The translations under genes were made by a program, and so were the position numbers. This document shows, one piece after another, positions 44,740 through 61,298 of a DNA stretch of 64,000 nt (the first letter of the stretch is position 1; each line of letters begins with the position of its first letter). The notes below the pieces were generated by a model that was not told where the DNA came from, searched no databases, and saw nothing but the letters and a program-made list of their open reading frames with translations. The DNA is from Chitinispirillales bacterium (GTDB lineage Bacteria; Fibrobacterota; Chitinivibrionia; Chitinivibrionales; Chitinispirillaceae), in contig JAITFI010000101.1 in assembly GCA_031281485.1 (NCBI GenBank), positions 2,373 to 66,372 on the forward strand. Direction: 5' to 3'.

Positions 44740-45111
44740 GTGTCGAATATATCTGAAGTGGTTGTGATAGATGTCTCCGGTGTGATTGAACATCGAGGAA
44801 CAAAACATTGTGTGTGCGTGTCCGTGTCAGCTGAGAAATACTTGCTGATAAACACAAACCATCGTGATATATACGATGATTTTGAAATAAAATCGTCTGA
44901 ATACGCATTTCTGAAACCTAAAAATCGCTTTGTATGTTGCTCAGAAATGTATCATTTTGATTCTGATGAAATCATTAAGAGTGTTGGTACTCTCAATCGC
45001 AATGATATGATAAAAATTGTTGATAAGATACAAAACTCTGAAAGTCTGAAAAAGGCAGAAAAAGATTTTGTCATACTAGAACTTGGTAAATGGTTGTCGA
45101 AAAATCCTTGA
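44740..45111 (+). CDS. Unknown 123-aa protein, candidate toxin partner
   Basis: GTG start 1 nt after the upstream stop, GGTGG SD. AT-rich. No recognisable motif. Confidence 0.5.
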   Translation: MSNISEVVVIDVSGVIEHRGTKHCVCVSVSAEKYLLINTNHRDIYDDFEIKSSEYAFLKPKNRFVCCSEMYHFDSDEIIKSVGTLNRNDMIKIVDKIQNSESLKKAEKDFVILELGKWLSKNP

Positions 45112-45452: not shown

Positions 45453-45464
45453 CCCCCCCCCCCC
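45453..45464. repeat. Homopolymeric C12 tract
   Basis: 12 consecutive C. It is followed by ~75 bp homologous to the sequence after the C19 tract at 41137. Confidence 0.95.
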
Positions 45465-45666: not shown

Positions 45667-46149
45667 GTGAAAAGACTAACGTTTTTTCTCTTCACGCTGT
45701 TATTCTTTACCGGAACCTCCGTGGCGGGGGTGAAATACGTGGCTGTTGTAGAAACAGAGATAGATGTGCAATCCGGCGCCTCCATCCAACTGAATTCGGC
45801 GGACGTAAGGCAAGTAACGGCGGCGCTTCGCAGGGAAGCCGTTAAAAACCTACCGTCCGGTAAATACAACATCATGACCTCTGAAACCGTTTATGCACAA
45901 GGCAGCGCCACTCTAGAGGCATGCGCCGAGGAAAACTGCGTCATCACCCTCGGAAGTAAAATCGGAGCTGACTACATAGTACGCGGGATTATAAGCAAAC
46001 TACGCACAAAGTTCACTTTGTCGGTCGAAATATACGAAACCGAAAACGGAAACTTGGTCGCTTCGTCCGACCTTGTCAGTTGCGACAATATCGAAGATCT
46101 TGTAAAAGAAGCCGCCGTCACTTGCGCGAATATGTACAATGTGATTTAA
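45667..46149 (+). pseudogene. N-terminal fragment of a secreted protein gene split by element 2
   Basis: Signal peptide plus an N-domain paralogous to 41272-42399. After ..VTCANMY it reads NVI-stop. The homology resumes at 61291. Confidence 0.8.
46123..46139. repeat. attL core of element 2 (17-bp direct repeat)
   Basis: TGCGCGAATATGTACAA, identical to 61282-61298 and in the same reading frame at both sites. Confidence 0.85.
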
Positions 46150-46245
46150 TACTTTTAGCCATTTTAAGTATAAGACAATATCCGCGTTTTTGATACAATT
46201 TAAGCGGTTTTTCACTTTCTAATCTTTCGCCGCTTTTCGTGATTT

Positions 46246-46288
46246 TGACTAACATTTATTTTTATGTTAGTCACACGTTAGTCAAATT
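46246..46288. promoter_or_regulatory. Inverted and direct TTAGTCA repeats (candidate integrase binding sites)
   Basis: TGACTAACAT-8nt-ATGTTAGTCA perfect inverted repeat, then TTAGTCAAATT. A 20/22 match to TTAGTCAAATGTTAGTCAAATT sits at 61221-61242. Confidence 0.5.
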
Positions 46289-46318
46289 CGCCCACTAACG
46301 TAGTAGGAATACCCCTCT

Positions 46319-47536
46319 TTAGACGTCGCCTCCTTCGTCGAGCGTTCGGGCGTCGGGAAGTAGGAGCGTATCAAGAGCGCCGCCCGCCGCCTTGCCTATA
46401 GTGTCGGCGGTGTTTACCATGGCCTCCGCCCTTGCCTCCGCGAAGGAATGCGAGTAGATGTCCAAAGTCATTTGGGCGGAGCCGTGGCCGAGGCTGTCCT
46501 GAACGCTTTTTATATCTGCCCCGCTTTTGATCATTAATGAGGCAAAACTGTGACGCAGTGAGTGTGGGTGAAAGTCGGGGGGGATGTCCGTCCCGGCTAT
46601 TATATTCTTAACCGCCCGCGCGTATGTGCTATTGTGTAGATACCCTCCCTGCGGGTTCGGGAAAACGAGGTTCTTGTCCGTCCACGCTGACCCCATACCG
46701 GCGGCAAGATATTCAACGTCGCGCCGGTGCTGAATTAAGAAACTCAAAAGGAACGGCGCAATTTTCAAAACGCGGAAACTACTCTTGCTCTTAGGCTGGT
46801 TCACGCGCCCCTTGTCGTCAACTCCTTTATTAATATCAAGAAGCCCCTTGTCAAAGTTGATGTCATTCCAAGTCAAAGCGCGTAACTCCCCGGGACGTGC
46901 ACCCGTAAATAACTGCGTCAACAACAACCCGCGCACCCCAATATTATCTATCTTAGCAAGTCCCAAAATAAACGTCTTGACCTGCTCCGGGGACAGTACC
47001 GGCTGCTTTTTGGCTTCTACGCGGAGCGCCTCAACGTCGCTGAGAGGGTTGGCGGCTACCATCTTTTTCTTGACCGCCGCCGTGAACATTGCGCTGAGGT
47101 AAACACGGATATTATTTATAGTCTGCGGGGATAACCCCGCAACGTTACGCAGTTCGGCAAGATATGCGGAAAGCCGCGCCGGAGTCAATTCCCTCAGTCG
47201 CTTACCGCCGAGCTTCGGAAGGATATGACGCGACAACGCGCCGCGCCGTTTTTCCAAAGTGTGAGCTCTCAGCTTATTCGGGGCTATGGTGTCAAAATAC
47301 CACTTCGTCAACTCGTTCAAAGTCATGGAGTCGTCGAAGTTGGCAAGGCCTTTACAGTCATTCTCAAATTTGGCGGCGAACTCCTTAGCCGCTTTTAGGC
47401 CTTGTTTATCGGATAACCCCGGCGGTGGCGTGAAAGTCGTAGTCTTTATGTGCTGACTCCCGTCCGTTTTGCGTCCGAGGCTGACGGTGATGTGATACGT
47501 TTTGCGGTGTTTGCCGCGAACTCTAACGCTGGCCAT
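46319..47536 (-). CDS. int: Tyrosine recombinase / integrase of element 2
   Basis: 405 aa from MASVRVRGK with AAGGGGG SD. GARPGELRAL, HSLRHSFAS and LGHGSAQMTLDIYSH catalytic boxes. Confidence 0.9.
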   Translation of the reverse strand: MASVRVRGKHRKTYHITVSLGRKTDGSQHIKTTTFTPPPGLSDKQGLKAAKEFAAKFENDCKGLANFDDSMTLNELTKWYFDTIAPNKLRAHTLEKRRGALSRHILPKLGGKRLRELTPARLSAYLAELRNVAGLSPQTINNIRVYLSAMFTAAVKKKMVAANPLSDVEALRVEAKKQPVLSPEQVKTFILGLAKIDNIGVRGLLLTQLFTGARPGELRALTWNDINFDKGLLDINKGVDDKGRVNQPKSKSSFRVLKIAPFLLSFLIQHRRDVEYLAAGMGSAWTDKNLVFPNPQGGYLHNSTYARAVKNIIAGTDIPPDFHPHSLRHSFASLMIKSGADIKSVQDSLGHGSAQMTLDIYSHSFAEARAEAMVNTADTIGKAAGGALDTLLLPDARTLDEGGDV

Positions 47537-48500
47537 TTTCGCCCCCTTCTGTTTCGAAGAACCCCGAATCATCATCCGGTAACTTACCCGGTACACCGGA
47601 GAACGCAACTACCGGTAGACCTTTGTCCGGGGTTGGCTTTTGGTCATGAATTTTACCTTCCCAAAAGGCCCTGCGGAGGTCTTTTAATCTATCCCCCAAA
47701 ATACTAAGCAAGACCCCAAGATATTTATCCGGCGTTAAAGTACCTCTTGCATCATCAGCGGTTTTAAAAGTAATATCCCCGCCGGATTTCTCATCATAAT
47801 TCAAAAAACTGTAGAGACGAGACAACAACTCTTCCGATGTCTTACACTTCTCCCGCTCACGCCACGAAAGAAGAATGTTTATTGCGGCTAAACATTTTTT
47901 TTTGCGTTCGGCGTTACAATACAGATCTGCCTCCGTCGCTTCGTGGGAAAATATAGGAATTTCGCCCCTTCCCCCTGGATACTTAGCGCGGATAGCCTCA
48001 AAACGTTCATCCGATACGCCGCAGTCGCAACTGGCAGCCAAAAAATTGAGTGTCACCAAAGAAGCCTCATTCAATCCGAACTTTTCGATAATTTTCCGAG
48101 TTTTGATGTTCCTTGTGGGGTGGTCGGTAAGCCCTACCAAGTAATCGGTTGATACGCCTAGCGTCTTAGCGAGGGTTATTAGGTTCTTTATTGGAATATC
48201 TTTCCCATCACCGCGTTCAATTCTTGCAATGGTACCCTGCGATATTATACCCCCCATTGCGCTGGAGAGCGCTTGCGTTGTCTTATGTCCCGCGTTTATC
48301 CGAGCTTTCTTGACCCTTTTGCCCATTTCTTTGATGCGCTTATTCTCTTCACCCTCTATTGTGTTTTTTTTGAGCGTTCCCGGGGTAGTATAAGTTGAAG
48401 CCGCCTCTAATATGTCCGCCCTGTTTGCCGCGACGTACTCCATTAGGCTTGATTTAGGCTCTTTGGGGCGCTTTTTGTTTATATCGTGAATATTTTCCAT
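47523..48500 (-). CDS. XRE-family repressor with C-terminal extension
   Basis: Start MENIHD. HTH: QALSSAMGGIISQGTIARIERG...NLITLAKTLGVSTDYLVG. Overlaps the int start by 14 nt. Confidence 0.75.
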   Translation of the reverse strand: MENIHDINKKRPKEPKSSLMEYVAANRADILEAASTYTTPGTLKKNTIEGEENKRIKEMGKRVKKARINAGHKTTQALSSAMGGIISQGTIARIERGDGKDIPIKNLITLAKTLGVSTDYLVGLTDHPTRNIKTRKIIEKFGLNEASLVTLNFLAASCDCGVSDERFEAIRAKYPGGRGEIPIFSHEATEADLYCNAERKKKCLAAINILLSWREREKCKTSEELLSRLYSFLNYDEKSGGDITFKTADDARGTLTPDKYLGVLLSILGDRLKDLRRAFWEGKIHDQKPTPDKGLPVVAFSGVPGKLPDDDSGFFETEGGENGQR

Positions 48501-48549
48501 AAACACTACCTCATTTATTGATAATATATGATACATCAAAAACCGCTTG

Positions 48550-48577
48550 TTTACAGGTAATTATACACTTATATTTA
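48550..48577 (+). promoter_or_regulatory. Rightward promoter candidate in the repressor/cro intergenic region
   Basis: TTTACA-16nt-TATTTA, followed by TTGATATTGATAATAT direct half-sites. Confidence 0.45.
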
Positions 48578-48664
48578 TGGTGTTGATATTGATAATATAA
48601 ATAATGGCGGCGAAAGAATCAAAATAAAAATAACTTTTTTTAAACTTAAAAAAGGGAGGGAGTT

Positions 48665-48874
48665 ATGGTTCTTGTTAAGGATTTGTTACGTCGGGCAAGG
48701 GTAAGGGTTTGTTCTTATGAGGATGCGATGGCGACGGGGTTGGCAGGACCCATATCTGCTGGGACAGCGACCAAACAACCGAACTTGAGGACGAGTTCCT
48801 TGTATCAGCGAGGGGGGAGATTTGTACGTTCCTATCCATGGAGCGAGATACCGAGAAACAGCTTGCAATGCTGA
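48665..48874 (+). pseudogene. Frameshifted paralog of the cro-like gene at 49197
   Basis: The first 20 aa (MVLVKDLLRRARV..) match 49197-49475. The homology then continues in another frame (..WDSDQTTELEDEFL..ERDTE..) to a stop at about 48920. Confidence 0.5.
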
Positions 48875-48983
48875 CAGAATGGCTAATCCAAAGGCTGGAA
48901 GACTTTGAATGTGAAGAGTAAAATCACCTAGGGCGGTTAAGTGCCGCCCCTATTACCACATTAACAAAAAAAGGAGGGGTTTT

Positions 48984-49142
48984 ATGACGGAAACCCAAAG
49001 AGAGGCGATTCGGGCGGCAAGGAACGAGTATTCAAGGAGGTACCGACGCGAAAACCCGGACAAGATCAGAGCCGCAACCGAGCGTTACTGGTTACGTAAG
49101 GCGGCCCGTATGCAGGCCGAAAAAGAGGGGGAATCTCAGTAA
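48984..49142 (+). CDS. Small basic protein (52 aa)
   Basis: AAGGAGGGG SD. MTETQREAIRAARNEYSRRYRRENPDKIRAATERYWLRKAA. Confidence 0.5.
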   Translation: MTETQREAIRAARNEYSRRYRRENPDKIRAATERYWLRKAARMQAEKEGESQ

Positions 49143-49196
49143 ACAACCGGGGCGGGGTTCGCCCAAAGTATTATAAACCATCAAATAGGAGGTAGT

Positions 49197-49475
49197 ATGA
49201 AGTTAGTAAGAGAGCTATTACGCAGGGCGCGTGTCGAGACTTATTCCAAAGACACGGGGAAAGAAGTATACGAAATGTGTCTCCGGTGGGATAAAAGCCG
49301 CCTAAGCAAGATAGAAAACGAGTTCCTTCAGTGTATGGAGGGGGACGTTCTCTCTTTTTTGTTGACGGAACGCGACGCCGAGGCGTACGAGGCGACGCTG
49401 ACGCGTGGCCTACTTGACCTGTTGGGGGACAACGATGTTGAGCGGTGCCAAGTACAACCGAATCGGGGCGACTAA
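49197..49475 (+). CDS. Cro-like small HTH protein
   Basis: 92 aa, AGGAGG SD. ..WDKSRLSKIENE.. resembles the recognition-helix region of XRE proteins. Confidence 0.5.
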   Translation: MKLVRELLRRARVETYSKDTGKEVYEMCLRWDKSRLSKIENEFLQCMEGDVLSFLLTERDAEAYEATLTRGLLDLLGDNDVERCQVQPNRGD

Positions 49476-49527
49476 ACGTCGCCCCTTTATATCCATATTA
49501 GTTGATAAACCAAGAAAGGATTTGATC

Positions 49528-49758
49528 ATGGAAACGAATGAAAACGCTGACGGCGTTTATACGCTCCCAAAAGCGGCGGAGGCTTGCAAGCGGGAAGGGC
49601 TGAATTTGAGTTACTCTCAACTCCGTGGGTTGGTGGCGTCGGGGAGGCTAAAATCTTTTAAAAACGGGCGGAGGTTCTATGTAAGTATGGCCTTACTGAG
49701 GGCGGCGCTGAAAGACCCGAACTCAACGCTCTGGGATAGTATTGATGGTGAAAACTAA
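49528..49758 (+). CDS. xis: Excisionase-family DNA-binding protein
   Basis: 76 aa from METNEN. YTLPKAAEACKREGLNLSYSQLRGLVASGRLKSFKNGRRFYV is excisionase-type HTH. Confidence 0.6.
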   Translation: METNENADGVYTLPKAAEACKREGLNLSYSQLRGLVASGRLKSFKNGRRFYVSMALLRAALKDPNSTLWDSIDGEN

Positions 49759-49817
49759 AAGGCCTACCCGCGCCGCCAGCGTGGATAGGCTAAACACCAA
49801 AAACGAAAGGATATATT

Positions 49818-50447
49818 TTGAGCTACAGTAATAATATAATATCCGGCAATGCGCCGAGTCAAGGATATTTTTATAAATATTCGCCCCGCCGTCAACGTAT
49901 CCGGCTGGGGGTGCAGTCCGCACCCTCTCCCGTTCCCGTCAAGTACAATGTCGCCAAGTTACGCGCTGAGGCGGACACTAACGGCGAGGCCGTCCCACTT
50001 CCGCTGGTCGTCTTTGAGAATTGGAGCGAGGTTAGAGCGGCTATAAATACCCTTTTGGACGTGCCAGCAATAGCTGTTTGTGAGGGTTATTTCAAGAGCT
50101 TCGCTTCTTATGCGTTGGGCTTCGTTTCCGCGCTGGTAGAGTTGCGCCGTTCCGGTCTTAGGGTTCGCCCGCTGTTATTGATTCCCACTAACGACGCTCT
50201 GGGCTATGGCCTCCGGGATATGGGCGAGCTTGCCGCCCTTCTGCGCAATGCCGGATTCGTCTTTACGTGGACAAACGCCCCCGACGCGCCGCATACCCTT
50301 TATTTATATCGGGATACGTATTACGGCGACTTTGCGGAAATGTTCAGTCAAGAACCTCAACTTGCGGGGAGGCGGTTATTGGACGGGATATTTGACGCGC
50401 TGAACTTCATAACCAATAGGGGGCGCGTCTATGGTACACATCTTTAG
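49818..50447 (+). CDS. Hypothetical protein
   Basis: 209 aa, TTG start with GAAAGGA SD. Confidence 0.45.
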   Translation: MSYSNNIISGNAPSQGYFYKYSPRRQRIRLGVQSAPSPVPVKYNVAKLRAEADTNGEAVPLPLVVFENWSEVRAAINTLLDVPAIAVCEGYFKSFASYALGFVSALVELRRSGLRVRPLLLIPTNDALGYGLRDMGELAALLRNAGFVFTWTNAPDAPHTLYLYRDTYYGDFAEMFSQEPQLAGRRLLDGIFDALNFITNRGRVYGTHL

Positions 50448-50619
50448 GCACGGGGAAGTTCGCCCAGACAAAAGAAGCCCTGAATATCGGGAACTACGTC
50501 GTATAGCCGCGCAGCACATCCAAAAAGGGCGAGGCGTGTCCGAGTTCGTGGCCGCAATGGGACGGCACGACGAGCCGGTATTTGAGGCGTTTATAGACGA
50601 AAACGGAGGCCGGTTATGA
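50431..50619 (+). CDS. Hypothetical protein
   Basis: 62 aa, overlapping both neighbours (ATGA with the downstream gene). Confidence 0.4.
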   Translation: MVHIFRHGEVRPDKRSPEYRELRRIAAQHIQKGRGVSEFVAAMGRHDEPVFEAFIDENGGRL

Positions 50620-51833
50620 AATGCAATGAAGCCGAATATTTAGAACTGTTTAACGCCGCGTTCCGTTACATAAATTTGACGGACGGCAGGGCGCTGTTCA
50701 TATCGGAGATGACCGAGAAGAATTACAGTTCCGAGGCCATAAGCCGCGCTTTCGATAATGCAACAAGGAGCGACACGCCGGACACGTACACGGGTACGGA
50801 GGCCGCCGCCGACGTGCGCCGCGTACAAACGAAGCGCCTTTCCGACGTTACACGAAAAGAGCGTAGTTGGCTATGGGGGAACGTGCTTTTGAGGGGCGAG
50901 TTAAACTCCATACAAGGCGTCCCCGGAGTCGGAAAAAGTTTTATCATTGCCGCAATAGCCGCCGCTGTAAGCAGTGGCGGCAAGCTGCCCACGGTATCGG
51001 CCAAAGAGGAATATGCGACAAGCGCAATGAGTGTAGTCGAGCTGGGCAAAGTTGCAATACTGACCGACGAAGACGACCCGTCCGTGATTGCTGAGAGGAT
51101 CGAGACTTTAGGCGGCGACCTAAACGAGGTTATAATTATCGATGAAGACGAGAGTATTCCGCATATCCAGTCTGACGAATTGGAGACTCTATTTGACGAT
51201 TTCAAACCCGCCCTACTCATTTACGACACACTACAAGCCTCTTTACCGCCCGATATTAACATAAACGCGGCAAACGAGGCGCGGAGCGCGTTCGGGCGGG
51301 TGCTTAGGCTGGCAAGGAAACATAATACTTGCGTCCTTTTCATTCAACATATCAACAAGAAAAGCTCCCATGAGGGCGGCGGTCATAGTGTCTTTTATGG
51401 CGTGGGTTCCGGTGCCATAAACGGCCTATTCCGTACCGTGTGGACATTGGGTCGCGTGCTCGATGACGAAGGCAAAGAGACTTCCGGCCGCGCTCTCATT
51501 GTAAGTAAAAGTAATTACGCAAAGGGACAAATGCCCGCCGTCCGCTTTTCGCTGACGTTCGCGGGCGGGTTCCAGTGGGGTGAGGTAGATTATGATATTT
51601 CAACCCATGACTTATTCGGAAAGCGTGCTGTTGGCCGGCCTAACCAGTGTAATGCGGCAAAGGCTTTTATTGAAGAATATTTGAGTGGTGGAATGAAACC
51701 CGCTGAAGAGGTAAAAGCTGTTGCCGAGCGCAATGGTATCAAGAAAGACCTATTCTATAAGGCGGCAAGGGAACTGGGCGGCAAGTACGAGCGCGTCGGC
51801 GGAACGTCATTTTTGCGCATAGGGGGATGTTGA
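50616..51833 (+). CDS. RecA-like (AAA_25/RepA-type) replication ATPase
   Basis: 405 aa. Walker A GVPGVGKS, Walker B LLIYD, and a QHINKK sensor-like segment. Confidence 0.7.
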   Translation: MKCNEAEYLELFNAAFRYINLTDGRALFISEMTEKNYSSEAISRAFDNATRSDTPDTYTGTEAAADVRRVQTKRLSDVTRKERSWLWGNVLLRGELNSIQGVPGVGKSFIIAAIAAAVSSGGKLPTVSAKEEYATSAMSVVELGKVAILTDEDDPSVIAERIETLGGDLNEVIIIDEDESIPHIQSDELETLFDDFKPALLIYDTLQASLPPDININAANEARSAFGRVLRLARKHNTCVLFIQHINKKSSHEGGGHSVFYGVGSGAINGLFRTVWTLGRVLDDEGKETSGRALIVSKSNYAKGQMPAVRFSLTFAGGFQWGEVDYDISTHDLFGKRAVGRPNQCNAAKAFIEEYLSGGMKPAEEVKAVAERNGIKKDLFYKAARELGGKYERVGGTSFLRIGGC

Positions 51834-51847
51834 CAAAATACAGATAT

Positions 51848-51975
51848 TTTATCAACGGTAAAATGAATTTATCAACTGGGGAAAAGTGGCGTTTTTAGTG
51901 TAATTAAGCGGTTTTTGGGGGGGGTAGATAGCTGTTTATGTTGTTGTTGATAAACCTACCGTATAGTTTATCAAC
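51848..51975. repeat. Iteron cluster (candidate replication origin of element 2)
   Basis: TTTATCAAC at 51848, 51868 and 51967, plus inverted GTTGATAAA at 51946. Immediately downstream of the ATPase gene. Another GTTGATAAA lies at 49501. Confidence 0.5.
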
Positions 51976-52037
51976 AACGGGCAAAGCGGGATTTGAGGCA
52001 GTTTGATATATAAACCTTAACAGTAGGAGGAAGTGCA

Positions 52038-55000
52038 ATGATAAACAGCATAATGTGCGTGTACATCGTCTTAGACGGCGATTCCGCGGAAAACATCGGG
52101 CAAGAAGACCCGTCTATTGGGCTATTTAAGGTCCTAAACACGGTCACAAATTCGCAAATGTACGCGCTGGTCTACGCGGAAGACGACTTGAGCCGGTACG
52201 GCGCAGGGGCAATAAAACACGCTACCGGATTCTTGGCGTCGAACGGGATAGGCGAAATATCCGAAGCCGGAAACTTTAAGTCTGGTGGCGGAAATGTGCA
52301 GACAAGGCAAACCAACATCACAATCAACAATACAAACGGGCTGACGGACTCGCTAAACCGTCTCGGCATTAGGCTTATCGGCCAAAGAGTATACATAGTA
52401 GAGTATAGTGACGGCGTTGCGAACCCGCTATATAGCGGCATTGTTGACGCGCTGACTTGGAACGAGACCACGATTCAGCTGGCTACGCTACCGAATACCG
52501 GATTAACGAGGCGGTCAAATGTTATGATTGACGGGCTACCGGTAACGCTTGGTAATTGCCGGTTGGCGGAGCACCTACGGACGGGAGAGCCAGTATATCT
52601 TAACTATTCCGACTTTGTGGCTAGCAATGACGCGGACGAGGATTTTATCATATCTAAGATACAAGGCGACATAGCAGGCAGTAGTTTGGCGCATAAGATA
52701 TTGATAGAATTAGGGGACAGCATAACCATCACCGAAAACGACATATATGACAGGCTACTTGAAAGGTATGGATTTAAACGCGATAGGTCTGTAAAGGCAA
52801 ATGATATAGCTGTTTTTGCCGTGATAAAAGAGAGCAATTGGGGCGTTCCGCTTCGTACGTATGATCCGTTTACCTTAGATCTCGTGGATTGGACTGAAGA
52901 CACAGGCGATCCCGGTATGCCGTATCGAGACCACCGGAGCGTATTTTTAGTAATACACTTGGAGAGAGAACTGTCGTTTGGAGATGTGCCGCCATACACG
53001 GTAAGACTTGTTATCCCCAACCTGCAATTTATGGCGGACGGCTGGCCAAATGCAAGCGTAGACACGCCGACACCAAAACAGTCATCGCCAAATATAGACT
53101 TGTACGGCGGCGACGGCGATATGTATGAGGTAGCAAACAGCTTAGTATTACCCATAAGACCGTATGGCCGCGCTATCGACTATGATAAAACGCGGAGAGA
53201 TATTAGCCACAGCATATATCCGGCAAAGATCGAAATTATGCCATTTGAGCTGTCAGACTCTACCCTCGCGACGATAGCCTCGTATCTCCCAGTAACACTA
53301 CCCCAAGATGTCAGAGGCAACACCGACATTGACCTGCTAGGGGAAAGGGGCGCCACGGGCCAAAGGCTATTCCTAATTGTTGATGATCGTATACTGCTAT
53401 TTCCGAACACAGCCATAAATTCTTGGACCGATGAATGGACAAGTGGCGGCAGGCGGCTAGAGTACCTAAACAATGGCCTGTATTGGGATACGGTGCCCGA
53501 CGATTCACAGGTTACAGTTTACCCTCCGGCGTGGGCATATCCTCCGAGATATGGCCCCGGCCCGGATAGGAACGAACTGCGCAGGGGTGGCGGATCAGAT
53601 GTTGATCTTTCTACGTACGCGTGGCTTTCGTTCAGGTCTGTAAACAGTTCCGGTGGCGGTTCCACCGGAAACTACGTCTGCGCCATAATCGTGGGTCTCC
53701 CAGCCATCCCAAATGGGTATAGCCACTACAAGGACGCGTTTTTGCATACGTCAATGGTGCTTAGATATACGACAGTAGATTCGCACGGTGGCCCTAAATT
53801 AGACGACATGGCGATAATGGCGATTACAAGAGGCGACACCAACAGCCGCACAATGCAGTCATGGCCGGACAGGATATTCTTAGGGCAGGGCGGTACCGTA
53901 CACATGGATAACCACATCGCCACGGCGCTTGACGGAAGTGGCCGCAACATATACGACCTTGAGGACCAGCGCGCGGAGTTTATCGCGAATGTCCTTAAAG
54001 ATGGTGATAGGCTAATTCGATTGACCGGCTACGAGAATTTCAAAATAGACGGAATAGATTTTCTGTCGGATCGCCGTAGGCAAATGGCAATTATATTTAA
54101 CGCTCCCAATGTGGACCCGGCGCCTCCGTACGATATGACGTTCGATCTCCGAATACACGAGATAGGTGTACTCTTCAAAGCCGACATAAACATCAGTGAA
54201 AGGATAAAATACCGCTCATCCGGGCGAACGTTCGGCGGTATAAACAGCGCCTACTCTGACATGGTATGGGAAAATAGGAAAGTTGCGCACAATCATATAT
54301 CTAATCCCATAGACGCCGTCGAACACTTATTACGTTTGTCAAATTGGGCTGAAAATGATCCGGGCCTATTGTATGCGCCGAATCCGGGCAAGCAATATGC
54401 GGCTGAACGCGCTACGCTAATTGACACCGAATCTTTCGACAGCGCAACGCTGAACCAAATTAGACAGCTATCAATGGCCGGACAAGTACTTGACGAGGGC
54501 AAGGCATATAACGACGCGATAGCCGATGATATATGCAAAGACTTTTACATCGCGAGAAAGCATAAACTCTTGACAGGCGTGGCTGTTGGAGGCAACACAT
54601 TAAACTGGATCGGAAACTTTGCGCCGCCCTTTGAATCGGTTGGCAGTTTAGACACGCCGCCGCCCGAAGGTGAGATACCGGTTGTTACGCTGAAAGAATC
54701 GCAGCTGGTGACGATAAAAGAGCCGTCGTCGCGGGATATATGGTGTCAGCCGATAGTCAAATATTTCCATGTGAACGGGATCGGATACACTAAATCAATG
54801 GCCGTGACCGGCATAGTAACAAATACGGCGTGGAACGCAGATCTTACCCCCGGGTTTGAGCCTTTGGACGGAGAGAGAGTGTGGAATAAATGTAAAACCC
54901 TATTCCTGAAATACGGAAACTTTGTTGAGATGCCTGAATCAGCGCAGGGGCAAGATTGGATTCGTGATTATAGCACGGCGCTTTGGAAAATAAACAAGAT

Positions 55001-55307
55001 CATAGACTGGCAACAAAACTCGCGGACTCAAATCTCGGTTCCGTGGTCAATAGGCCGGACGTGGAGAGTTGGGACGCACGTATATATATCGTACAAGCAC
55101 GTAAGGGACGGGGACAAATTGCTTTGCGTGTGCGAGAGCGTGAGAAAATCTAAGTACACCAATAAAGTTACCTGTGACCTAATAATCCTTGATGATGTTG
55201 CCAGTGCGTTCGGCAGCTACTCAACGATAGAAGAAATAGGTAGTGCAAACATAGAAATAGATGAAAACGCAATGCGAGACACTGAAATCGCGGAGGGACA
55301 AACATGA
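52038..55307 (+). CDS. Large (1,089 aa) phage tail/host-specificity-like protein
   Basis: AGGAGG SD. No enzymatic motifs. The segment ..NPIDAVEHLLRL...IDTESFD.. resembles tail-tip/host-specificity proteins. The call is low-confidence. Confidence 0.4.
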   Translation: MINSIMCVYIVLDGDSAENIGQEDPSIGLFKVLNTVTNSQMYALVYAEDDLSRYGAGAIKHATGFLASNGIGEISEAGNFKSGGGNVQTRQTNITINNTNGLTDSLNRLGIRLIGQRVYIVEYSDGVANPLYSGIVDALTWNETTIQLATLPNTGLTRRSNVMIDGLPVTLGNCRLAEHLRTGEPVYLNYSDFVASNDADEDFIISKIQGDIAGSSLAHKILIELGDSITITENDIYDRLLERYGFKRDRSVKANDIAVFAVIKESNWGVPLRTYDPFTLDLVDWTEDTGDPGMPYRDHRSVFLVIHLERELSFGDVPPYTVRLVIPNLQFMADGWPNASVDTPTPKQSSPNIDLYGGDGDMYEVANSLVLPIRPYGRAIDYDKTRRDISHSIYPAKIEIMPFELSDSTLATIASYLPVTLPQDVRGNTDIDLLGERGATGQRLFLIVDDRILLFPNTAINSWTDEWTSGGRRLEYLNNGLYWDTVPDDSQVTVYPPAWAYPPRYGPGPDRNELRRGGGSDVDLSTYAWLSFRSVNSSGGGSTGNYVCAIIVGLPAIPNGYSHYKDAFLHTSMVLRYTTVDSHGGPKLDDMAIMAITRGDTNSRTMQSWPDRIFLGQGGTVHMDNHIATALDGSGRNIYDLEDQRAEFIANVLKDGDRLIRLTGYENFKIDGIDFLSDRRRQMAIIFNAPNVDPAPPYDMTFDLRIHEIGVLFKADINISERIKYRSSGRTFGGINSAYSDMVWENRKVAHNHISNPIDAVEHLLRLSNWAENDPGLLYAPNPGKQYAAERATLIDTESFDSATLNQIRQLSMAGQVLDEGKAYNDAIADDICKDFYIARKHKLLTGVAVGGNTLNWIGNFAPPFESVGSLDTPPPEGEIPVVTLKESQLVTIKEPSSRDIWCQPIVKYFHVNGIGYTKSMAVTGIVTNTAWNADLTPGFEPLDGERVWNKCKTLFLKYGNFVEMPESAQGQDWIRDYSTALWKINKIIDWQQNSRTQISVPWSIGRTWRVGTHVYISYKHVRDGDKLLCVCESVRKSKYTNKVTCDLIILDDVASAFGSYSTIEEIGSANIEIDENAMRDTEIAEGQT

Positions 55308-55450
55308 ATACGATAAGAGCAGATGTTTTGCGCGTGTTGGATACGAAACCAGCATTTCAGGGCGGAATCCTCAAAGACCGGATGTTCGGGTTTACACTTG
55401 ACACGCACGAGTTTGTTGCAATGACAAACGGGGGTGCCTATGACGAATAA
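55304..55450 (+). CDS. Hypothetical small protein (48 aa)
   Basis: ATGA overlap with the preceding stop. Below the ORF-track cutoff. Confidence 0.35.
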   Translation: MNTIRADVLRVLDTKPAFQGGILKDRMFGFTLDTHEFVAMTNGGAYDE

Positions 55451-55826
55451 GTCAAAGATACCCGTTCCAAGCGAGAGTAAAGAGCAGATCGCCCTATTCT
55501 ACTGGGCGAGGCTGAACGTGTCCAGTATACCGGAGTTAGGGCTCTTATTTAGTATTCCCAACGGCGGATATAGGACGCCATCCACCGCTGCCAGGATGAA
55601 AGCGGAGGGCGAACGAGCAGGGGTGCCGGACTGTTTCCTACCGATCCCGAGAGGGAGGTATTCGGGGCTATGGATCGAACTTAAAAGACTTCGCGGTAGC
55701 AAAATCGACCCACTACAAAAGTGGTGGGCTGAACGGTTATCCGCGCAGGGCTATGCTCACGTTTTCGCTTATGGCTGGGAGGAGGCAGTCAAGGCTATTG
55801 AAACGTATTTGAGCGGTCAATTTTGA
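55440..55826 (+). CDS. VRR-NUC domain nuclease
   Basis: ESKEQIALFYWA...IPNGGYR...GVPDCFLPIP...LWIELKRLRGSKIDPLQKWW matches the VRR-NUC (PD-(D/E)xK) pattern. Confidence 0.75.
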   Translation: MTNKSKIPVPSESKEQIALFYWARLNVSSIPELGLLFSIPNGGYRTPSTAARMKAEGERAGVPDCFLPIPRGRYSGLWIELKRLRGSKIDPLQKWWAERLSAQGYAHVFAYGWEEAVKAIETYLSGQF

Positions 55827-55954
55827 CCGCTGGGAAAACACGAGAGTGTTCACGTCAACGAGAGAGGCGACAAAACAGTATTTTCTTGTTGCGAAAAACA
55901 CGGAAGTTTAGTATATTAACTATAATCACAATCTAACCGTTAGGAGGTAGTAGA

Positions 55955-56149
55955 ATGATTGCATTACCGGAAACGGATTTTCAAAAGCAATTTCGCGAGC
56001 GCAAAGAACGCGAGGAGGCCGAGAAGGAACGCCTTCACATGGTGATTTTAGGGAAGACGTATAAACGTTTTCTTTCGCTGGGCAGGAATCCGGTAACGGG
56101 GAAACTCCTTAAGGATTCCCCGTATTATGGCACACTGGGGAGGTCGTGA
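55955..56149 (+). CDS. Hypothetical protein
   Basis: 64 aa, AGGAGG SD. Confidence 0.5.
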   Translation: MIALPETDFQKQFRERKEREEAEKERLHMVILGKTYKRFLSLGRNPVTGKLLKDSPYYGTLGRS

Positions 56150-56151
56150 TC

Positions 56152-56439
56152 ATGGTGACGGCTGACGAACTCCAAAGGCAAAAGGAATCCCTTACACCCC
56201 AAATAAAGGCAAGGCTTGCCACTTTGGAGGCCGAGCGCCGGGCAGATAGGGAGAGAGAAGAGGCACGGACGGCGCGACGCGCTGCGGAGCTACGGGATAA
56301 TGAGCTGAACCGGCATAGGGCACCCTTTAGCGTGAGCAAGCACCCTATACCGGCCGGGTACGTCGCGACGGGAAACCGTCCGCGCAGTTACCCTATACCG
56401 CCCGGATACGTCGCGGTAAATAACAACAACCAAAACTAA
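56152..56439 (+). CDS. Hypothetical coiled-coil protein
   Basis: ATG at 56152 has better SD spacing than the GTG at 56146. Confidence 0.45.
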   Translation: MVTADELQRQKESLTPQIKARLATLEAERRADREREEARTARRAAELRDNELNRHRAPFSVSKHPIPAGYVATGNRPRSYPIPPGYVAVNNNNQN

Positions 56440-56456
56440 TTGAAAGGTGGTAAATT

Positions 56457-56696
56457 ATGAAAAAGATAAAAATGCGTAAACCCCATGATTACGCGACGGT
56501 GTCGATTAAAAAGGACGGCGAGCTATACCGCCGCGCCGTCGCGGGAAGTGTCCCCGCAATTATACTTTACCTATGCGCCAACGTTCCCGAAAGGTGGAAG
56601 TTAGACCTTGAAATATTGCCGGTATTGATACGCATGGAGCGGGACAGGTGGAAGATCACCGCGGGCGGATATACCTACAACGCGGCGGCAGCATGA
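56457..56696 (+). CDS. Hypothetical protein
   Basis: 79 aa, GAAAGGTGG SD. Its stop overlaps the terS ATG as ATGA. Confidence 0.45.
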   Translation: MKKIKMRKPHDYATVSIKKDGELYRRAVAGSVPAIILYLCANVPERWKLDLEILPVLIRMERDRWKITAGGYTYNAAAA

Positions 56697-57178
56697 TGGA
56701 GACTACGACGCAACCTGGAACGGACGCTCAGTCTGGCAAGAGGGCGCGGGGGGCTACGGTCTACCGCGCCGAATATGCGGATATTGCCGAGGCTGCCGCT
56801 GCTGAAATGGGCGCGACGGACGCGAATTTGGCGCGAGTCTTCAAAGTAACTCCAAGAGCGATTTTACAGTGGAAGAAAAAACATCCGGCCTTCGCTGAAG
56901 CTCTTGCGAGGGGCAAAGAGGAAGCCGACGCGAAGGTCGTAAAGTGTCTATATCAACGGGCGACGGGGTATACGTATACCGAGAAGGCGGTCGTAACATT
57001 CCCCGATGGTGGGCAGCAGGTAACAGAACACGAAAAACACGCGCCGCCCAACGTGGACGCCCAAGTCAAATGGCTTTACAATCGACAGCCTAAGCGGTGG
57101 CGACCGCAACCTCTTGAAAATCAAGACGAGGACACGCTACCGTCCGTAGTGATCACATACGAGGAAGACAAGGCATAA
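56693..57178 (+). CDS. terS: Terminase small subunit
   Basis: 161 aa. HTH LARVFKVTPRAILQWKKKHPAFAEALARGKEEADAKV..CLYQRATGY is typical of small terminases. It lies directly upstream of terL. Confidence 0.7.
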   Translation: MMETTTQPGTDAQSGKRARGATVYRAEYADIAEAAAAEMGATDANLARVFKVTPRAILQWKKKHPAFAEALARGKEEADAKVVKCLYQRATGYTYTEKAVVTFPDGGQQVTEHEKHAPPNVDAQVKWLYNRQPKRWRPQPLENQDEDTLPSVVITYEEDKA

Positions 57179-57179
57179 G

Positions 57180-58445
57180 ATGGACAACACAGAAACAACA
57201 ATAAAAATCGTCTTGAGCCGTCCGCAAATGCAATTCAAGCGACTCGACAAGAAATACCGCGCTTTCGTGGGCGGCTACCGTTCCGGCAAAACATGGGTGG
57301 GGTGTACAAATATTTGTGACCATATCGCGAAATATCCGAGAGTGAGCGCCGGTTACTTTGTCCCCACATATCCTATGCTCGAAGATATTTTCTATCCGAC
57401 AATCGAGAGCGTCGCGCCGTTATTCGGTTTTAAAGTCGAGATTAACCGCTCAAAGAAGCGCGTGTTTTTCTTCCGGTACGGTAAATATTACGGGGAATGT
57501 ATCTGCCGCTCAATGGAACAGCCGGAGCGCATAGTAGGCTTTAAAATTGGATATGCATTGATAGACGAGATAGACTTATTGCCGAAACCCAAGGCGGACA
57601 TTGTCTGGAACAAGGTCGCAGCGCGCATGAGCTATGCCATTGACGGCTTGCCCAACCGCATAGACGTAACGACAACGCCGGAGGGCTACGGGTTCGCGTA
57701 TAATAAATTCGTTGCAAATAAAACCGACTCCTACGGAATCGTCCACGCCTCAACACGCGACAATGCAAAGAACTTACCGCCCGACTATATCCCGTCGCTC
57801 ATTGAAACGTACCCGTCGTATTTAATCGACGCGTATCTCGAAGGCCGCTTCGTCAATTTGACAGCCGGTACGGTTTATCACGCCTACAAGCGCGACGTGC
57901 ACGATAGTAATGAGGAAATCCGCCCCGGTGATAGGTTGTTCATCGGTCAAGACTTCAACGTAGGCAAGATGTGTTCAGCGGTATTGGTGCAACGCAATAA
58001 CGTATTTCACGTTGTCGATCAACTAACCGGCGTTATGGACACGCCCGCGCTATGCAAATTGTTGACCGAGAGATATAGGGGACACGAGATATTGATTTAT
58101 CCCGACGCGACAGGCGGAGCGCGAAAAACCGTGAACTCGTCAATGTCAGACATTATGCTTTTGAAGAGCGCGGGTTTTATCGTGCGGGTTAATAATTCTA
58201 ACCCTGCGGTACGCGATCGAGTAGTCTCTATAAATAATGCGTTTGAAAGGGGGTTATTGCGCGTTAATGCGCGGAAGTGTCGCGAGGTGTCGAGTTGTTT
58301 AGAAAAACAAGCGTATGATACAAATGGCGAACCGGACAAGGCCGCGGGCTTCGACCACATGAATGACGCGCTGGGTTATTTTGTCACCCATGAATTACCC
58401 GTGCGAAGGCCTGCGCTGATAGTAGGCCTTCGCACGGGCTCTTGA
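57180..58445 (+). CDS. terL: Terminase large subunit
   Basis: 421 aa. Walker A GGYRSGKT, Walker B-like ALIDEID. The C-terminal nuclease half carries acidic motifs. Confidence 0.8.
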   Translation: MDNTETTIKIVLSRPQMQFKRLDKKYRAFVGGYRSGKTWVGCTNICDHIAKYPRVSAGYFVPTYPMLEDIFYPTIESVAPLFGFKVEINRSKKRVFFFRYGKYYGECICRSMEQPERIVGFKIGYALIDEIDLLPKPKADIVWNKVAARMSYAIDGLPNRIDVTTTPEGYGFAYNKFVANKTDSYGIVHASTRDNAKNLPPDYIPSLIETYPSYLIDAYLEGRFVNLTAGTVYHAYKRDVHDSNEEIRPGDRLFIGQDFNVGKMCSAVLVQRNNVFHVVDQLTGVMDTPALCKLLTERYRGHEILIYPDATGGARKTVNSSMSDIMLLKSAGFIVRVNNSNPAVRDRVVSINNAFERGLLRVNARKCREVSSCLEKQAYDTNGEPDKAAGFDHMNDALGYFVTHELPVRRPALIVGLRTGS

Positions 58446-58557
58446 TGTGGAAAACGAAAGGCGCAAGGAGTGATCCGGCTTTATTGGTTGACCAGCCTAA
58501 TCCCGGTTTGGCCCCCTTGGGGGCCGCGCCTCCTACCTTATTCTGCCATTGCTTGCC

Positions 58558-59037
58558 CTATAGCTGTCGGATAAAGTCTTTGTTACAAAAATAGGTTCTT
58601 GCGGCGCCCCATGTGCCGCCCTCATACTTTACTCTTGCGGATGTAAAAACAAGCGTGTCGTTGCCACGTAATTCGTATCTCCATGACCAATTTATCGTCC
58701 CTCGTGACTCTATGCGGTTTGTAGCAAATATCTCATTACCCGAAGTGTACCAGCTGTCCATTATATTGCTTTGATTAACCACCGTAGTTTCTGGCCAGTC
58801 TTCGTTATTTACGTAGTCAAGCCCGCTCCCGGTCAATACAATGCTGTTGCCATTAAACTCGTATGTCAGGTCAATACTTGATCTTATTTGGTTGCAACTG
58901 CCCTCGCATAGGTGGTCAACACCAGCAATAAACCACTTTCCGTATAGGCGGCTATCTTGGGCCTGTCCCTCTTTAGGGTCAGTTCCGCAACCGGAGAGGA
59001 GGGCGAAGAGGGCGGCTAGGAGTAGTAGGCGTTTCAT
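58558..59037 (-). CDS. Lipoprotein
   Basis: 159 aa. Signal peptide with lipobox LLSGC. Confidence 0.6.
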   Translation of the reverse strand: MKRLLLLAALFALLSGCGTDPKEGQAQDSRLYGKWFIAGVDHLCEGSCNQIRSSIDLTYEFNGNSIVLTGSGLDYVNNEDWPETTVVNQSNIMDSWYTSGNEIFATNRIESRGTINWSWRYELRGNDTLVFTSARVKYEGGTWGAARTYFCNKDFIRQL

Positions 59038-59072
59038 TTTGGGTCCTTTCCTATAACCTATTTAACTATTTG

Positions 59073-59417
59073 TCATAGTTCTCTTTGCTGCCCAAGCCCA
59101 GAAACAAGGGTATCTACCGCCTGTTTGGCTTCCGGCGCGAGCGTCCTATAAAAGCCGACAAGGGAGGCCTCGGCGGGTGAGTGTATGGCGTCGGGTATTG
59201 CGTGTTCGGATAGTACAGCCGCCACCCGCTTCATTAATTTGGTCGAGGGTGCCCGCTCCGACCGCTCTATTTGCGAGACATACTGCCAAGTAACACCGAG
59301 GGCGTCGGCGAATTGTTGTTGCGTCAAACCGCACCGGCGCCGGGCGTCGCGGACGATTTCGGCGGCTGCGCCGTCGATGGTTGGCTTGTTCGGGGCTTGC
59401 CTATTTTCTGTGTCCAT
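59073..59417 (-). CDS. XRE-family HTH regulator
   Basis: 114 aa. LTQQQFADALGVTWQYVSQIERSERAPS. Confidence 0.75.
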   Translation of the reverse strand: MDTENRQAPNKPTIDGAAAEIVRDARRRCGLTQQQFADALGVTWQYVSQIERSERAPSTKLMKRVAAVLSEHAIPDAIHSPAEASLVGFYRTLAPEAKQAVDTLVSGLGQQREL

Positions 59418-59438
59418 ATCTTAAATATATATTGTTTT

Positions 59439-59544
59439 CTTGCCTTTTTACAACAAAATCTCACAATAATTTATATATTTTTACTACTTGCTTTAAAAAA
59501 GAATAAAAATAAAAATAAATTTGCTTGCTTTTTACAAACAAAAA
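59439..59544. promoter_or_regulatory. Divergent promoter/operator region with repeated CTTGC-TTTTTACAA-CAAAA boxes
   Basis: cttgcctttttacaacaaaa (59439-59458) and cttgctttttacaaacaaaaa (59524-59544), plus a partial third copy. AT-rich, with TATATT/TATTAT boxes. Confidence 0.45.
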
Positions 59545-59622
59545 GGTTATATTATAGGGGTAGGGCGGGGAAACAGCCCGATGACGAAATAAAACACATT
59601 TTTAGAAAGGGAGGGGCATGAC

Positions 59623-59907
59623 ATGGGCAGCGACAGCGAAACCTCGGTCGTCTATGACGATGACCTACTTGAAATCATTGCCGATATGCTCGATCTATCA
59701 ATCTGTATTAAGGTCTTTTTTGAGGGATTAGACCCTGACGACTATTCCTACGAGAGACGTCAAGCGGCAGCAAAAATGATAGGTCTTGCGGCAACGAGTG
59801 TCCTGACCGTGACGCGCTCGCGCGCGCTTGGGCAAGCTCTGCCCAGGCGCGCGCGGAGCTTGCAAAACTACAGAAAGATATTTCTGACACCAGCAAAGCC
59901 ACCGTAA
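59623..59907 (+). CDS. Hypothetical protein, possibly frameshifted
   Basis: GGGAGGGG SD. From about 59820 a more protein-like reading continues in another frame to 60040, with the switch at a CGCGCGCGC run. Confidence 0.35.
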   Translation: MGSDSETSVVYDDDLLEIIADMLDLSICIKVFFEGLDPDDYSYERRQAAAKMIGLAATSVLTVTRSRALGQALPRRARSLQNYRKIFLTPAKPP

Positions 59908-60169
59908 AGGCCGCTGAGAGGTTGGTCGATAGAATAGAAACGGCGGCCATATTCGGGACGGTGCCCCACAAAGGAGCCAAAGAGGCGCTTGTCTTGCCCA
60001 TTATCATGATCGCCGGAGGGGCACCCCCTAAAACTGGGTAAAGAAAGCCATTGCAAGGCAGGCGGCGGAAGGTCTAAACCGGGCGAGACTTCAACGGCAG
60101 GGGACGGTCAAAAAAAAGACTGCGGACGGGGCGCAAAGATATTATATTTCATAGGGAGGGCAGGCCGAT

Positions 60170-60607
60170 ATGTTTAGGATATGTTTTGATAATTGTTGCA
60201 ATAGCCGGTTATTCGACGACGAAACAAAGCCGAATATAAAGGCGGAGGCCGACGCAATACGGCGCATTATTAACAACAAGCGGCGCGGCGGTTACGTCAT
60301 TATCGGCAGTTTTGCCGGATACGCTGAAATTAACAAAATATCCGACGACAAAGCGCGGCAGGCCGCAAAACAGAAATATGAAGGGTATATTGACGACTGG
60401 ATTAAAAAGGCCGCCCCGATAATGGCAAGGGCGCGGAAGTTAGAAGCGTATGGGCTTATCGGATGGGACGCCGCCCACCTTGCGGCGGCTGAGGCGGCGC
60501 GGGCAGATTATCTTTTGACGGTGGACAAAGATTTTTTAAAGGTATGTTTACGGTCGAATTTTACAAAGGTTAAAGTTATAAACCCTATAGACTTTGAAAG
60601 GCGGTAA
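60170..60607 (+). CDS. PIN-domain-like protein
   Basis: 145 aa, AGGGAGGG SD. N-terminal CFDN acidic residue. The C-terminal GWDAAHLAAAEAARADYLLTVDKDF is PIN-typical. Confidence 0.55.
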   Translation: MFRICFDNCCNSRLFDDETKPNIKAEADAIRRIINNKRRGGYVIIGSFAGYAEINKISDDKARQAAKQKYEGYIDDWIKKAAPIMARARKLEAYGLIGWDAAHLAAAEAARADYLLTVDKDFLKVCLRSNFTKVKVINPIDFERR

Positions 60608-60610
60608 ACT

Positions 60611-60820
60611 ATGACAACGGCAAAGCGCGGTAATTGGATTGAAGAATGGCGCGAGGCGCGGAAAAATACCACACTGGACGAAATCGAAGCCATAGCCGAT
60701 AGGTTAGAGGCCGAACCCACGGAGCGGCGGGGGCTGACGCCGGAAGAGTTAGATGAAAAATACGGGCGGATAGAAGAGCCGCAACCAACCACGCGCCGCG
60801 CTGAACTGGTGGGCGCGTAA
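60611..60820 (+). CDS. Hypothetical acidic protein
   Basis: 69 aa, starting 3 nt after the PIN stop. Confidence 0.45.
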   Translation: MTTAKRGNWIEEWREARKNTTLDEIEAIADRLEAEPTERRGLTPEELDEKYGRIEEPQPTTRRAELVGA

Positions 60821-60879
60821 CTGACCGCCACCCGCCCATGAACAACGGGTGGGACAAAATACCCATTAAGGAGTAGAGT

Positions 60880-61140
60880 ATGGTCACGATAGACGCAGGC
60901 GAGTTGATACGGTGGGCAAAGACCGAAATGAAAAAAGCCATTGCCAAAATGGACGCGGCAGACGCTACATTGGACGCGGCGCGGGAGATGTGCACCGCAA
61001 TGATAGAAGCGGCGACGCCGATGTATATTCGCATGGGCGATAGACTCAAGGCCGCAGGATACCTTCCTACTGATCGAAGAGGTAATTTGACATATTGGGA
61101 ACCCCGGAAAACCGTTCACCCCAACGTATGCGCGAAATAG
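60880..61140 (+). CDS. Hypothetical protein
   Basis: 86 aa, AAGGAG SD. Confidence 0.5.
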   Translation: MVTIDAGELIRWAKTEMKKAIAKMDAADATLDAAREMCTAMIEAATPMYIRMGDRLKAAGYLPTDRRGNLTYWEPRKTVHPNVCAK

Positions 61141-61220
61141 GAAGCGCCCACCCACCCCCCCTTTTTCCGTCCCCGATGTGTCGTATCTTTTCGTAATTTT
61201 CTGTAGTTTTTATTTTAAAA

Positions 61221-61242
61221 TTAGTCAAATGTTAGTCAAATT
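61221..61242. promoter_or_regulatory. TTAGTCA direct repeats near the right end of element 2
   Basis: TTAGTCAAATGTTAGTCAAATT, a 20/22 match to 46267-46288. Confidence 0.5.
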
Positions 61243-61281
61243 ATCCAAAAAAAACGCTAAAATACTAAGCATTTTACAAAA

Positions 61282-61298
61282 TGCGCGAATATGTACAA
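61282..61298. repeat. attR core of element 2 (17-bp direct repeat)
   Basis: TGCGCGAATATGTACAA, identical to 46123-46139. Confidence 0.85.

Follow-up and report, generated by a model that had tools for sequence, protein, structure and literature searches.

A probable phage-derived island splits a secreted-protein gene at a conserved coding motif in a Chitinispirillales genome

We analyzed a 64,000-nucleotide stretch of a Chitinispirillales metagenome-assembled genome (GenBank assembly GCA_031281485.1, contig JAITFI010000101.1), referred to here as the window, in which an element of about 15 kb that encodes a tyrosine integrase interrupts a gene of the secreted Fib_succ_major family. Two copies of a 17-bp direct repeat, the attachment (att) cores, bracket the element. 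The features that define the insertion are listed below, with lengths of open reading frames (ORFs) in amino acids (aa).

45667–46149, plus strand: target-gene 5′ fragment, 160 aa; signal peptide and DUF3280-like N-domain, with an NVI-stop ending that lies within the element
46123–46139, plus strand: attL core (left 17-bp copy), comprising codons C153-A-N-M-Y plus two bases, the first two, of the target-gene codon that follows
46140–61281: inserted element, 15,142 bp without the cores and 15,159 bp when one core is counted
46243–46287: left-arm repeats TTAGTCA(A/C)A, two of them direct and 11 bp apart, with a third, inverted copy; candidate integrase arm-type sites
46319–47539, minus strand: tyrosine integrase, 406 aa from its ATG (PF00589, 6.6e-25; phrog_1, 3e-76)
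61221–61241, plus strand: right-arm repeats, with TTAGTCAAAT present twice in direct orientation, 11 bp apart
61282–61298, plus strand: attR core (right 17-bp copy), direct repeat of the attL core
61291–61905, plus strand: target-gene 3′ fragment, 204 aa; linker and Fib_succ_major domain (PF09603, 6e-30)
41272–42399, plus strand: uninterrupted paralog with the N-domain and promoter region of the target and a different C-domain; att-like site at 41725–41741
Predicted attB junction (empty site; synthetic, built from the window sequence): ..GCCGTCACTTGCGCGAATATGTACAAAACGTTTGAGAAC..
Predicted attP junction (circular form; synthetic, built from the window sequence): ..CATTTTACAAAATGCGCGAATATGTACAATGTGATTTAATAC..

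The repeat, TGCGCGAATATGTACAA, occurs exactly twice in the window, both times on the plus strand; no third match was found there with up to two mismatches, and none is expected from shuffled sequence. Because the bases bordering the two copies differ on both sides (CACT/TGTG versus AAAA/AACG), the repeat is exactly 17 bp long. An earlier reading of the same DNA, the original prediction, had placed this repeat at the borders of an integrase element, and its exactness and uniqueness in the window bear that out. It had also pointed to the codon phase common to the two copies; this is true of both, but it carries no information, nor does the description of the insertion as in frame, because the phase is automatically retained when a core inside a gene is duplicated.

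The two gene fragments conform closely to what had been proposed for them. The left ORF begins with a hydrophobic, signal-like segment, contains a weak match to DUF3280, and ends in ..VTCANMY-NVI-stop, retaining the signal peptide and N-domain. On the far side of the element the frame resumes in an ORF that opens with MYKTFENTQGSAKMSTQKS (MYKTFENTQG..); its start codon is the repeat's own in-frame ATG, that of the conserved MY motif, and it has no signal peptide. The National Center for Biotechnology Information (NCBI) annotation lists this right fragment as a separate protein of the metagenome-assembled genome (P0003). Judged by these features, the gene is cut into a 160-aa, predicted secreted N-fragment and a 204-aa C-fragment devoid of a signal peptide. 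Neither half contains a frameshift or a stop.

Joining the left flank, one core and the right flank in silico yields a protein of 359 aa. Its alignment with the paralog at 41272–42399 runs unbroken through residues 1–183 at 61% identity, extending 26 residues past the junction, as the original prediction had indicated for the right-hand continuation. Moreover, the rejoined protein aligns end to end with many homologues of 360–400 aa from termite-gut Chitinispirillales and Fibrobacterota (50–64% identity, 94–100% coverage). Dozens of proteins therefore place the two flanks in a single homologue, and the PF09603 domain together with the N-terminal signal-like segment places the target gene in the secreted Fib_succ_major family (TIGR02145/PF09603). 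It follows that precise recombination between the 17-bp cores would rebuild an intact 359-aa ORF, in agreement with the earlier claim that excision would restore the gene exactly. The paralog carries a site resembling the core, TCTGCTAATATGTACAA at 41725–41741, which matches it at 14 of 17 positions and contains AATATGTACAA, the sequence that had been singled out as a possible secondary target.

Promoter and terminator scans at the two junctions returned counts near shuffle expectation (left, 2 versus 1.5 sites; right, 6 versus 2.1), and the promoter scan placed no plus-strand promoter-like site in the interval that separates the last element ORF from the ATG of the right fragment. Because these counts are at about shuffle level, they permit no statement on expression of either fragment. 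Upstream of both N-domain genes, a conserved block at ~115–215 bp contains a poly-C tract. Its length is 12 C for the target in the window (45453–45464), 14 C for the target in a contig from the Logan collection (L006, 22–35) and 19 C for the paralog (~41138–41156), a difference that could reflect slipped-strand phase variation or homopolymer sequencing error.

At the ends of the element we found the parts expected for site-specific recombination. The stop codon of the integrase gene (46319) lies 179 bp inside the left end, matching the ~180 bp first reported, and in an alignment of 11 relatives the catalytic residues R215, H326, R329, H352 and Y362 are invariant. Copies of TTAGTCA are located at 46246 (minus strand), 46267, 46278, 61221 and 61232, and the window contains three exact copies of the 10-mer TTAGTCAAAT, always within 150 bp of an element end. 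Together with the core and an attL proximal to the integrase, these candidate arm-type sites form the classical arrangement. We assign the element to the integrative elements on the basis of its catalytic recombinase, identical end cores and arm-type motifs in both arms.

Relatives of this integrase indicate that the same type of site has been used repeatedly. The closest proteins in a collection of 5.8 billion are 82% (P0121) and 77% (P0122) identical; P0121 is encoded on four contigs from different samples (L007–L010) and P0122 on one (L011), all of them from other termite-gut metagenomes. As in the window, integrase and N-domain genes lie with their 3′ ends toward each other in each case, the N-domain gene being cut at the C-A-x-M-Y motif, and the DNA is co-linear with the window from integrase through arm to gene (L007, 77% identity over 1.7 kb; L011, 69% over 1.8 kb). 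The junctions have a common layout consisting of the core TGCGC[GC]GA[ACG]ATGTA[CT]AA, then GCGTTTTTGATAnnnTTTAAGCG, then three arm repeats. The arrangement of these arm repeats is kept in L007 and L011, with motifs that differ; the sequences are specific to each element (TTAGTCAAA, TTAGACAAA and TTAACCAAA). With those recovered in a protein search with the N-fragment, and counting that of the window, there are at least six distinct truncated N-domain proteins which end in ..CAxMY|N and an element-coded tail:

Window left fragment: ..CANMY|NVI
P0265: ..CAEMY|NFI
P0272 and P0262: ..CADMY|NIFLHLSPHYIQEQNSVFDSV
P0243: ..CAAMY|NIFLHLSPHYIQLHNRVFDSV
P0242: ..CANMY|NLISYFSPLFV

The gene for P0262 (contig L124) is surrounded by housekeeping genes encoding LplA, a glycosyltransferase and a ketoacyl synthase. 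L124 and L007 have the element end in common and differ in host gene and neighborhood; the same element type must therefore have entered different paralogs or genomes. An uninterrupted homologue (P0007, on L041–L043, from one of the same samples) carries TGCGCGAACATGTATAA at the matching codons, identical to the core at 15 of 17 positions. The cargo of the related elements varies: L007 carries a TrwC relaxase fragment, L034 a primase. Common to them are only the integrase, the att region, a repressor and an excisionase-like ORF. In L007–L010 the target N-fragment has lost residues 1–53 as well as its upstream context. A Fib_succ_major fragment at the far end of L007 and L008 was considered as the other half of their target and rejected, since it lies on the strand opposite to the N-fragment.

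In metagenomes the motif GCGTTTTTGATAnnnTTTAAGCG was found in the L007 contig and at four loci with neither an integrase nor an N-domain homologue, and it was absent from viral contigs. A scan of representative genomes with the integrase alignment was uninformative, as it returned only relatives at 25–45% identity, in other phyla and none beside this gene family, and the integrase relatives in viral contigs did not exceed 29% identity.

Several other loci bear integrases related to that of the window. L034 contains a truncated relative (3763–4452; 82–85% identity over the first 229 residues) directly followed by a DJ-1/PfpI gene; there is no N-domain gene near the truncated integrase, and the locus, which also encodes a DnaG-type primase, is accordingly a related element in a decayed state. 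Fib_succ_major genes have more distant integrases (57% and 52% identical) as neighbors too, at other positions. In L035–L037 (about 11348–11554 in L035) the integrase is immediately adjacent to the final 69 codons of a Fib_succ_major domain, and in L038 (9945) and L039 (11404) a 99.99% identical element lies ~60–70 bp upstream of two different full-length family genes; the hosts are two genomes, assemblies of the ‘Fibrobacteres bacterium R8-0-B4’ type.

We consider it highly probable that the window contains a phage-derived island inserted by tyrosine-integrase recombination of attP with a 17-bp core inside a chromosomal gene. Recombination of the island's attP with the core in the secreted-protein gene would have split the gene, and recombination of attL with attR would rebuild it exactly. 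The core encodes the conserved C-A-x-M-Y-K motif, which marks the boundary between the common N-domain and the variable linker and C-domain in a family of secreted proteins from termite-gut Chitinispirillales. The integrase/att module may be specialized on this motif, making any paralog with a matching core a potential landing site, and we infer that this integrase lineage recognizes the conserved C-A-x-M-Y-K coding motif. The TIGR02145 family has 17–119 copies per Fibrobacteres genome (PMC4704652) and would thus offer many dispensable landing sites. The most economical reading is that the motif serves as a conserved, multi-copy and individually dispensable attachment site, following a logic like that of tRNA genes, and is not a host regulatory device.

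The remaining genes of the element, read from left to right, are as follows (HTH, helix-turn-helix).

47523–48539, minus strand: HTH_3 repressor-like protein, 338 aa, overlapping the start of the integrase gene
Between 48665 and 49475: three small ORFs
49525–49758, plus strand: candidate excisionase/AlpA-like protein, 77 aa (weak HTH_17 match, E 2.6e-4, below the Pfam cut-off)
50616–51833, plus strand: AAA_25 helicase-like replication protein
52038–55307, plus strand: 1089-aa tail-tip-like protein (predicted fold only; no sequence-level family)
55434–55826, plus strand: VRR-NUC nuclease
56648–57178, plus strand: terminase small subunit (TerS)
57180–58445, plus strand: terminase large subunit (TerL)
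58558–59037, minus strand: lipoprotein
59073–59417, minus strand: HTH protein
Right of this HTH protein: a few further small ORFs

The order of HTH gene then integrase gene is kept in the related elements, and the 77-aa excisionase-like ORF has a homologue in L007. The 1089-aa protein had no matches in Pfam, PHROGs, Protein Data Bank (PDB) sequences or phage genomes, and pattern scans of IMG/VR found no relatives in viral contigs. Its AlphaFold model (predicted local distance difference test [pLDDT] 72, predicted template modeling score [pTM] 0.73) retrieved siphophage tail-tip hubs in a fold search, namely those of T5 (7zqp_b, E 7e-9), DT57C, lambda (8iyk_F/8k35_A), T1 and JBD30. About 300 homologues of this protein are present at 50% clustering, and its gene is placed between those of the helicase and the VRR-NUC nuclease. 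At 58389–58447, a 24-nt inverted repeat with an 11-nt spacer and 83% complementarity overlaps the TerL gene at its 3′ end, in the region where the similarity to the phages L044 and L045 (see below) ends, and could be a terminator or the relic of a deletion or rearrangement breakpoint. Pfam and PHROGs scans of the element ORFs detected no portal, capsid, scaffold, tape-measure or lysis genes. Because portal, capsid, tape-measure and lysis genes are lacking, we regard the element as either a prophage rendered defective by deletion and rearrangement or a satellite-like island.

Several observations weigh against insertion by site-specific recombination as we have described it, or narrow what it explains. 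Neither an empty attB of an orthologue of the split gene nor an attP was present in the collections searched: the exact core with any combination of attB, attP, attL or attR flanks had no hits in Joint Genome Institute (JGI) metagenome contigs, a degenerate attL/attP pattern had none in IMG/VR, and exact-protein look-ups returned only occupied junctions (Logan contigs, SRR14710904) and no record of the integrase with the chosen start. The uninterrupted allele that the original prediction had envisaged was likewise not found in these collections, the best full-length relative being 64% identical. Because no attB or attP was found, we infer mobility of the copy in the window from its intact parts. 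The attR of the related elements is on none of the available contigs, and exact restoration can therefore be predicted for one case only. The excisionase assignment is weak, as it derives from a sub-threshold HTH_17 match. Finally, the perfect repeats and undecayed halves would fit a recent insertion and also selection for restorability. An alternative reading is a regulatory switch, or active lysogeny, a layout to which the original prediction had pointed. In this reading the island would excise precisely under some conditions, with the full-length secreted protein restored, persist by means of its replication genes as an episome that produces no virions and later reintegrate, toggling one surface or secreted paralog on and off. 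The layout matches such a switch, with insertion inside an ORF that excision would restore exactly, as far as sequence can tell. Both halves are undecayed, the integrase is intact and accompanied by an excisionase-like ORF, a replication module is available for an episome, and the scanned ORFs, like those of cryptic switch elements, include no portal, capsid, tape-measure or lysis gene; precedents exist in SpyCIM1 in mutL (PMC4689407), the Listeria comK prophage (PMC7397523) and phiSa3 in hlb (PMC6597384). Against an operating switch, neither attB or attP junctions nor an uninterrupted orthologue were found in any collection searched, and contigs of a separate assembly of SRR14710904 cross both occupied junctions without a break. 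A target that is one of many paralogs has little need for a dedicated switch. The halves in the window are intact, but in the closest related insertion (L007–L010) the target N-fragment has lost its first 53 codons and upstream region, showing that the gene was not maintained in restorable form in that host; L034, too, contains only a truncated version of a close relative of the integrase. Moreover, the integrase/att module travels with unrelated cargo, including elements with TrwC relaxase, which argues for site choice driven by the element and not for co-option by the host. We therefore think a switch unlikely. A broader version, which we rate as quite unlikely, holds that the integrase/att lineage, on phage-like islands and relaxase-bearing mobilizable elements alike, has specialized on the domain-boundary motif of this very large family, that it toggles individual paralogs through reversible insertion and excision and, together with promoter poly-C tracts, generates combinatorial, element-driven surface variation in termite-gut Fibrobacterota, and that the island is a new kind of satellite with its own terminase and tail-tip protein.

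That the element is a functional, helper-dependent satellite, as opposed to a decayed prophage, is possible but doubtful. Such a satellite would use its own TerS and TerL, and perhaps the tail-tip protein, to hijack the capsids and tails of a phage related to L044 or L045, and the split gene would be merely its attachment site. L044 and L045 are 30–35-kb IMG/VR contigs of complete phages from a termite-gut metagenome (3300028327) whose TerL proteins are 87–88% identical and TerS proteins 43–47% identical to those of the element; they otherwise have little in common with it (one more short match, in L044) and are candidates for its ancestor or its helper. The terminase similarity speaks for a satellite, as do the 15-kb size, the absence of portal, capsid, tape-measure and lysis genes, the tightly packed and intact ORFs, the perfect att sites, and a gene order like that of phage-inducible chromosomal islands (PICIs), with integrase and repressor directed leftward and the excisionase-like ORF, replication and TerS genes rightward. 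Downstream of TerL, L044 carries portal, head-morphogenesis, scaffold and major head genes that have no counterpart in the element. Against a satellite, the similarity to L044 stops near the TerL 3′ end in the manner of a deletion breakpoint. No second copy of the gene order was found, the relatives having only the integrase/att/repressor/excisionase-like module, and viral contigs yielded no close relatives of either the 1089-aa protein or the integrase. The complete prophage that adjoins the split gene (prophage-1) has nothing in common with the element. The integrase, HTH protein and AAA_25 protein would suit a satellite, but TerL and a tail-tip hub-like protein are present as well, and this pair is not known from the repertoire of described satellite families, which we count against this explanation. 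It is extremely improbable that the contig misjoins a mobile element to two unrelated gene fragments. The source is metagenome-assembled and mobile elements are often misassembled, but both junctions recur in a separate Logan assembly of SRR14710904 (attL in L006, attR in L001) and are hence not an artefact of one assembler. In addition, the two fragments, when joined at the junction, match a single protein family exactly, and junctions of this type are seen in six independent targets. We conclude that the insertion by site-specific recombination is real, well supported and of a known kind, and that its site specificity is modestly interesting.

Prophage-1 extends from about 11480 to 44236 (32.8 kb); at its two borders (11416–11479 and 44173–44236) the 3′ part of tRNA-Phe is directly repeated, exactly and over 64 bp. 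The prophage is complete, encoding an integrase, portal, major head protein, tape measure, TerL and TerS, and it carries the uninterrupted paralog as cargo at its right end. We considered prophage-1 as a helper or relative of the element and rejected it, as there is no detectable similarity between them. Directly to the right of its attR, a low-GC stretch (44238–45111; about 40%) contains an antitoxin-like gene with a SocA/Panacea domain (166 aa, 1e-13) and, after it, an ORF of 123 aa that resembles PemK very weakly; the two are probably a toxin-antitoxin pair. An 81-nt block is present both within the right end of prophage-1 (43774–43854) and between a gene for a 191-aa protein and mnmA (62759–62839). 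The copies are 88% identical and contain TTGACA, 17 nt and TATTAT followed by a hairpin-forming stretch; the block has no Rfam match and may be a small RNA or a common promoter and leader. The only Rfam matches in the window are tRNAs.

Temperate elements that insert into coding sequences and restore them exactly upon excision are well known from comK, hlb, mutL, spsM and sigK. To these the present case contributes a clean example in an uncultured lineage of the termite gut, in which the attachment site is a conserved peptide-coding motif of many paralogs and several related elements use that motif in different genes and samples. Should excision prove to be regulated, active lysogeny would extend to Fibrobacterota and to surface proteins encoded by a multi-copy family; otherwise, the insertion still illustrates how a mobile element can exploit a paralogous family as dispensable landing sites. 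The case also marks ORFs of these metagenome-assembled genomes that look like short Fib_succ_major or N-domain genes, but are split, as products of insertion and not genuine short genes.

Among characterized systems, the SpyCI elements at the 5′ end of mutL in Streptococcus pyogenes are similar in being ~13–15-kb phage-derived islands that lack virion structural genes, encode a tyrosine integrase directed to a protein-coding gene, carry replication functions possibly used by an episome, and restore the gene on excision (PMC4689407, PMC3430984). They differ in that their target is a single-copy gene of an essential pathway, whose operon is blocked, whereas the element described here, which has genes for TerS, TerL and a tail-tip-like protein, occupies one of the many paralogs of a large family. 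Excision and reintegration of SpyCIM1 with growth phase have been demonstrated experimentally (PMC4689407, PMC3430984); our element is known from sequence alone. The Listeria comK prophage (PMC7397523), Staphylococcus aureus phiSa3int in hlb (PMC6597384, PMC12607152) and Bacillus subtilis SPbeta in spsM (PMC13228054) likewise split an ORF at a short core repeat and rebuild it by precise excision. Those prophages, however, are complete or nearly so, with conditional excision and a phenotype demonstrated, whereas the island in the window has no portal, capsid, tape-measure or lysis genes and resides in an uncultured host. Elements attached to tRNA genes, such as prophage-1 at tRNA-Phe, also exploit a short host sequence maintained by selection, with several related genes usable. 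They usually bring a replacement 3′ end that leaves the gene functional (prophage-1 duplicates 64 bp), in contrast to the 17 bp duplicated here from the middle of a coding sequence, which results in inactivation of the gene. Finally, PICIs and the S. aureus pathogenicity islands (SaPIs) resemble the element in size, in the divergent arrangement of integrase and repressor versus excisionase and replication genes, in a TerS gene near the right end and in the absence of capsid genes. The element departs from these satellites in carrying TerL and a tail-tip hub-like gene and in matching no recognized satellite marker genes.

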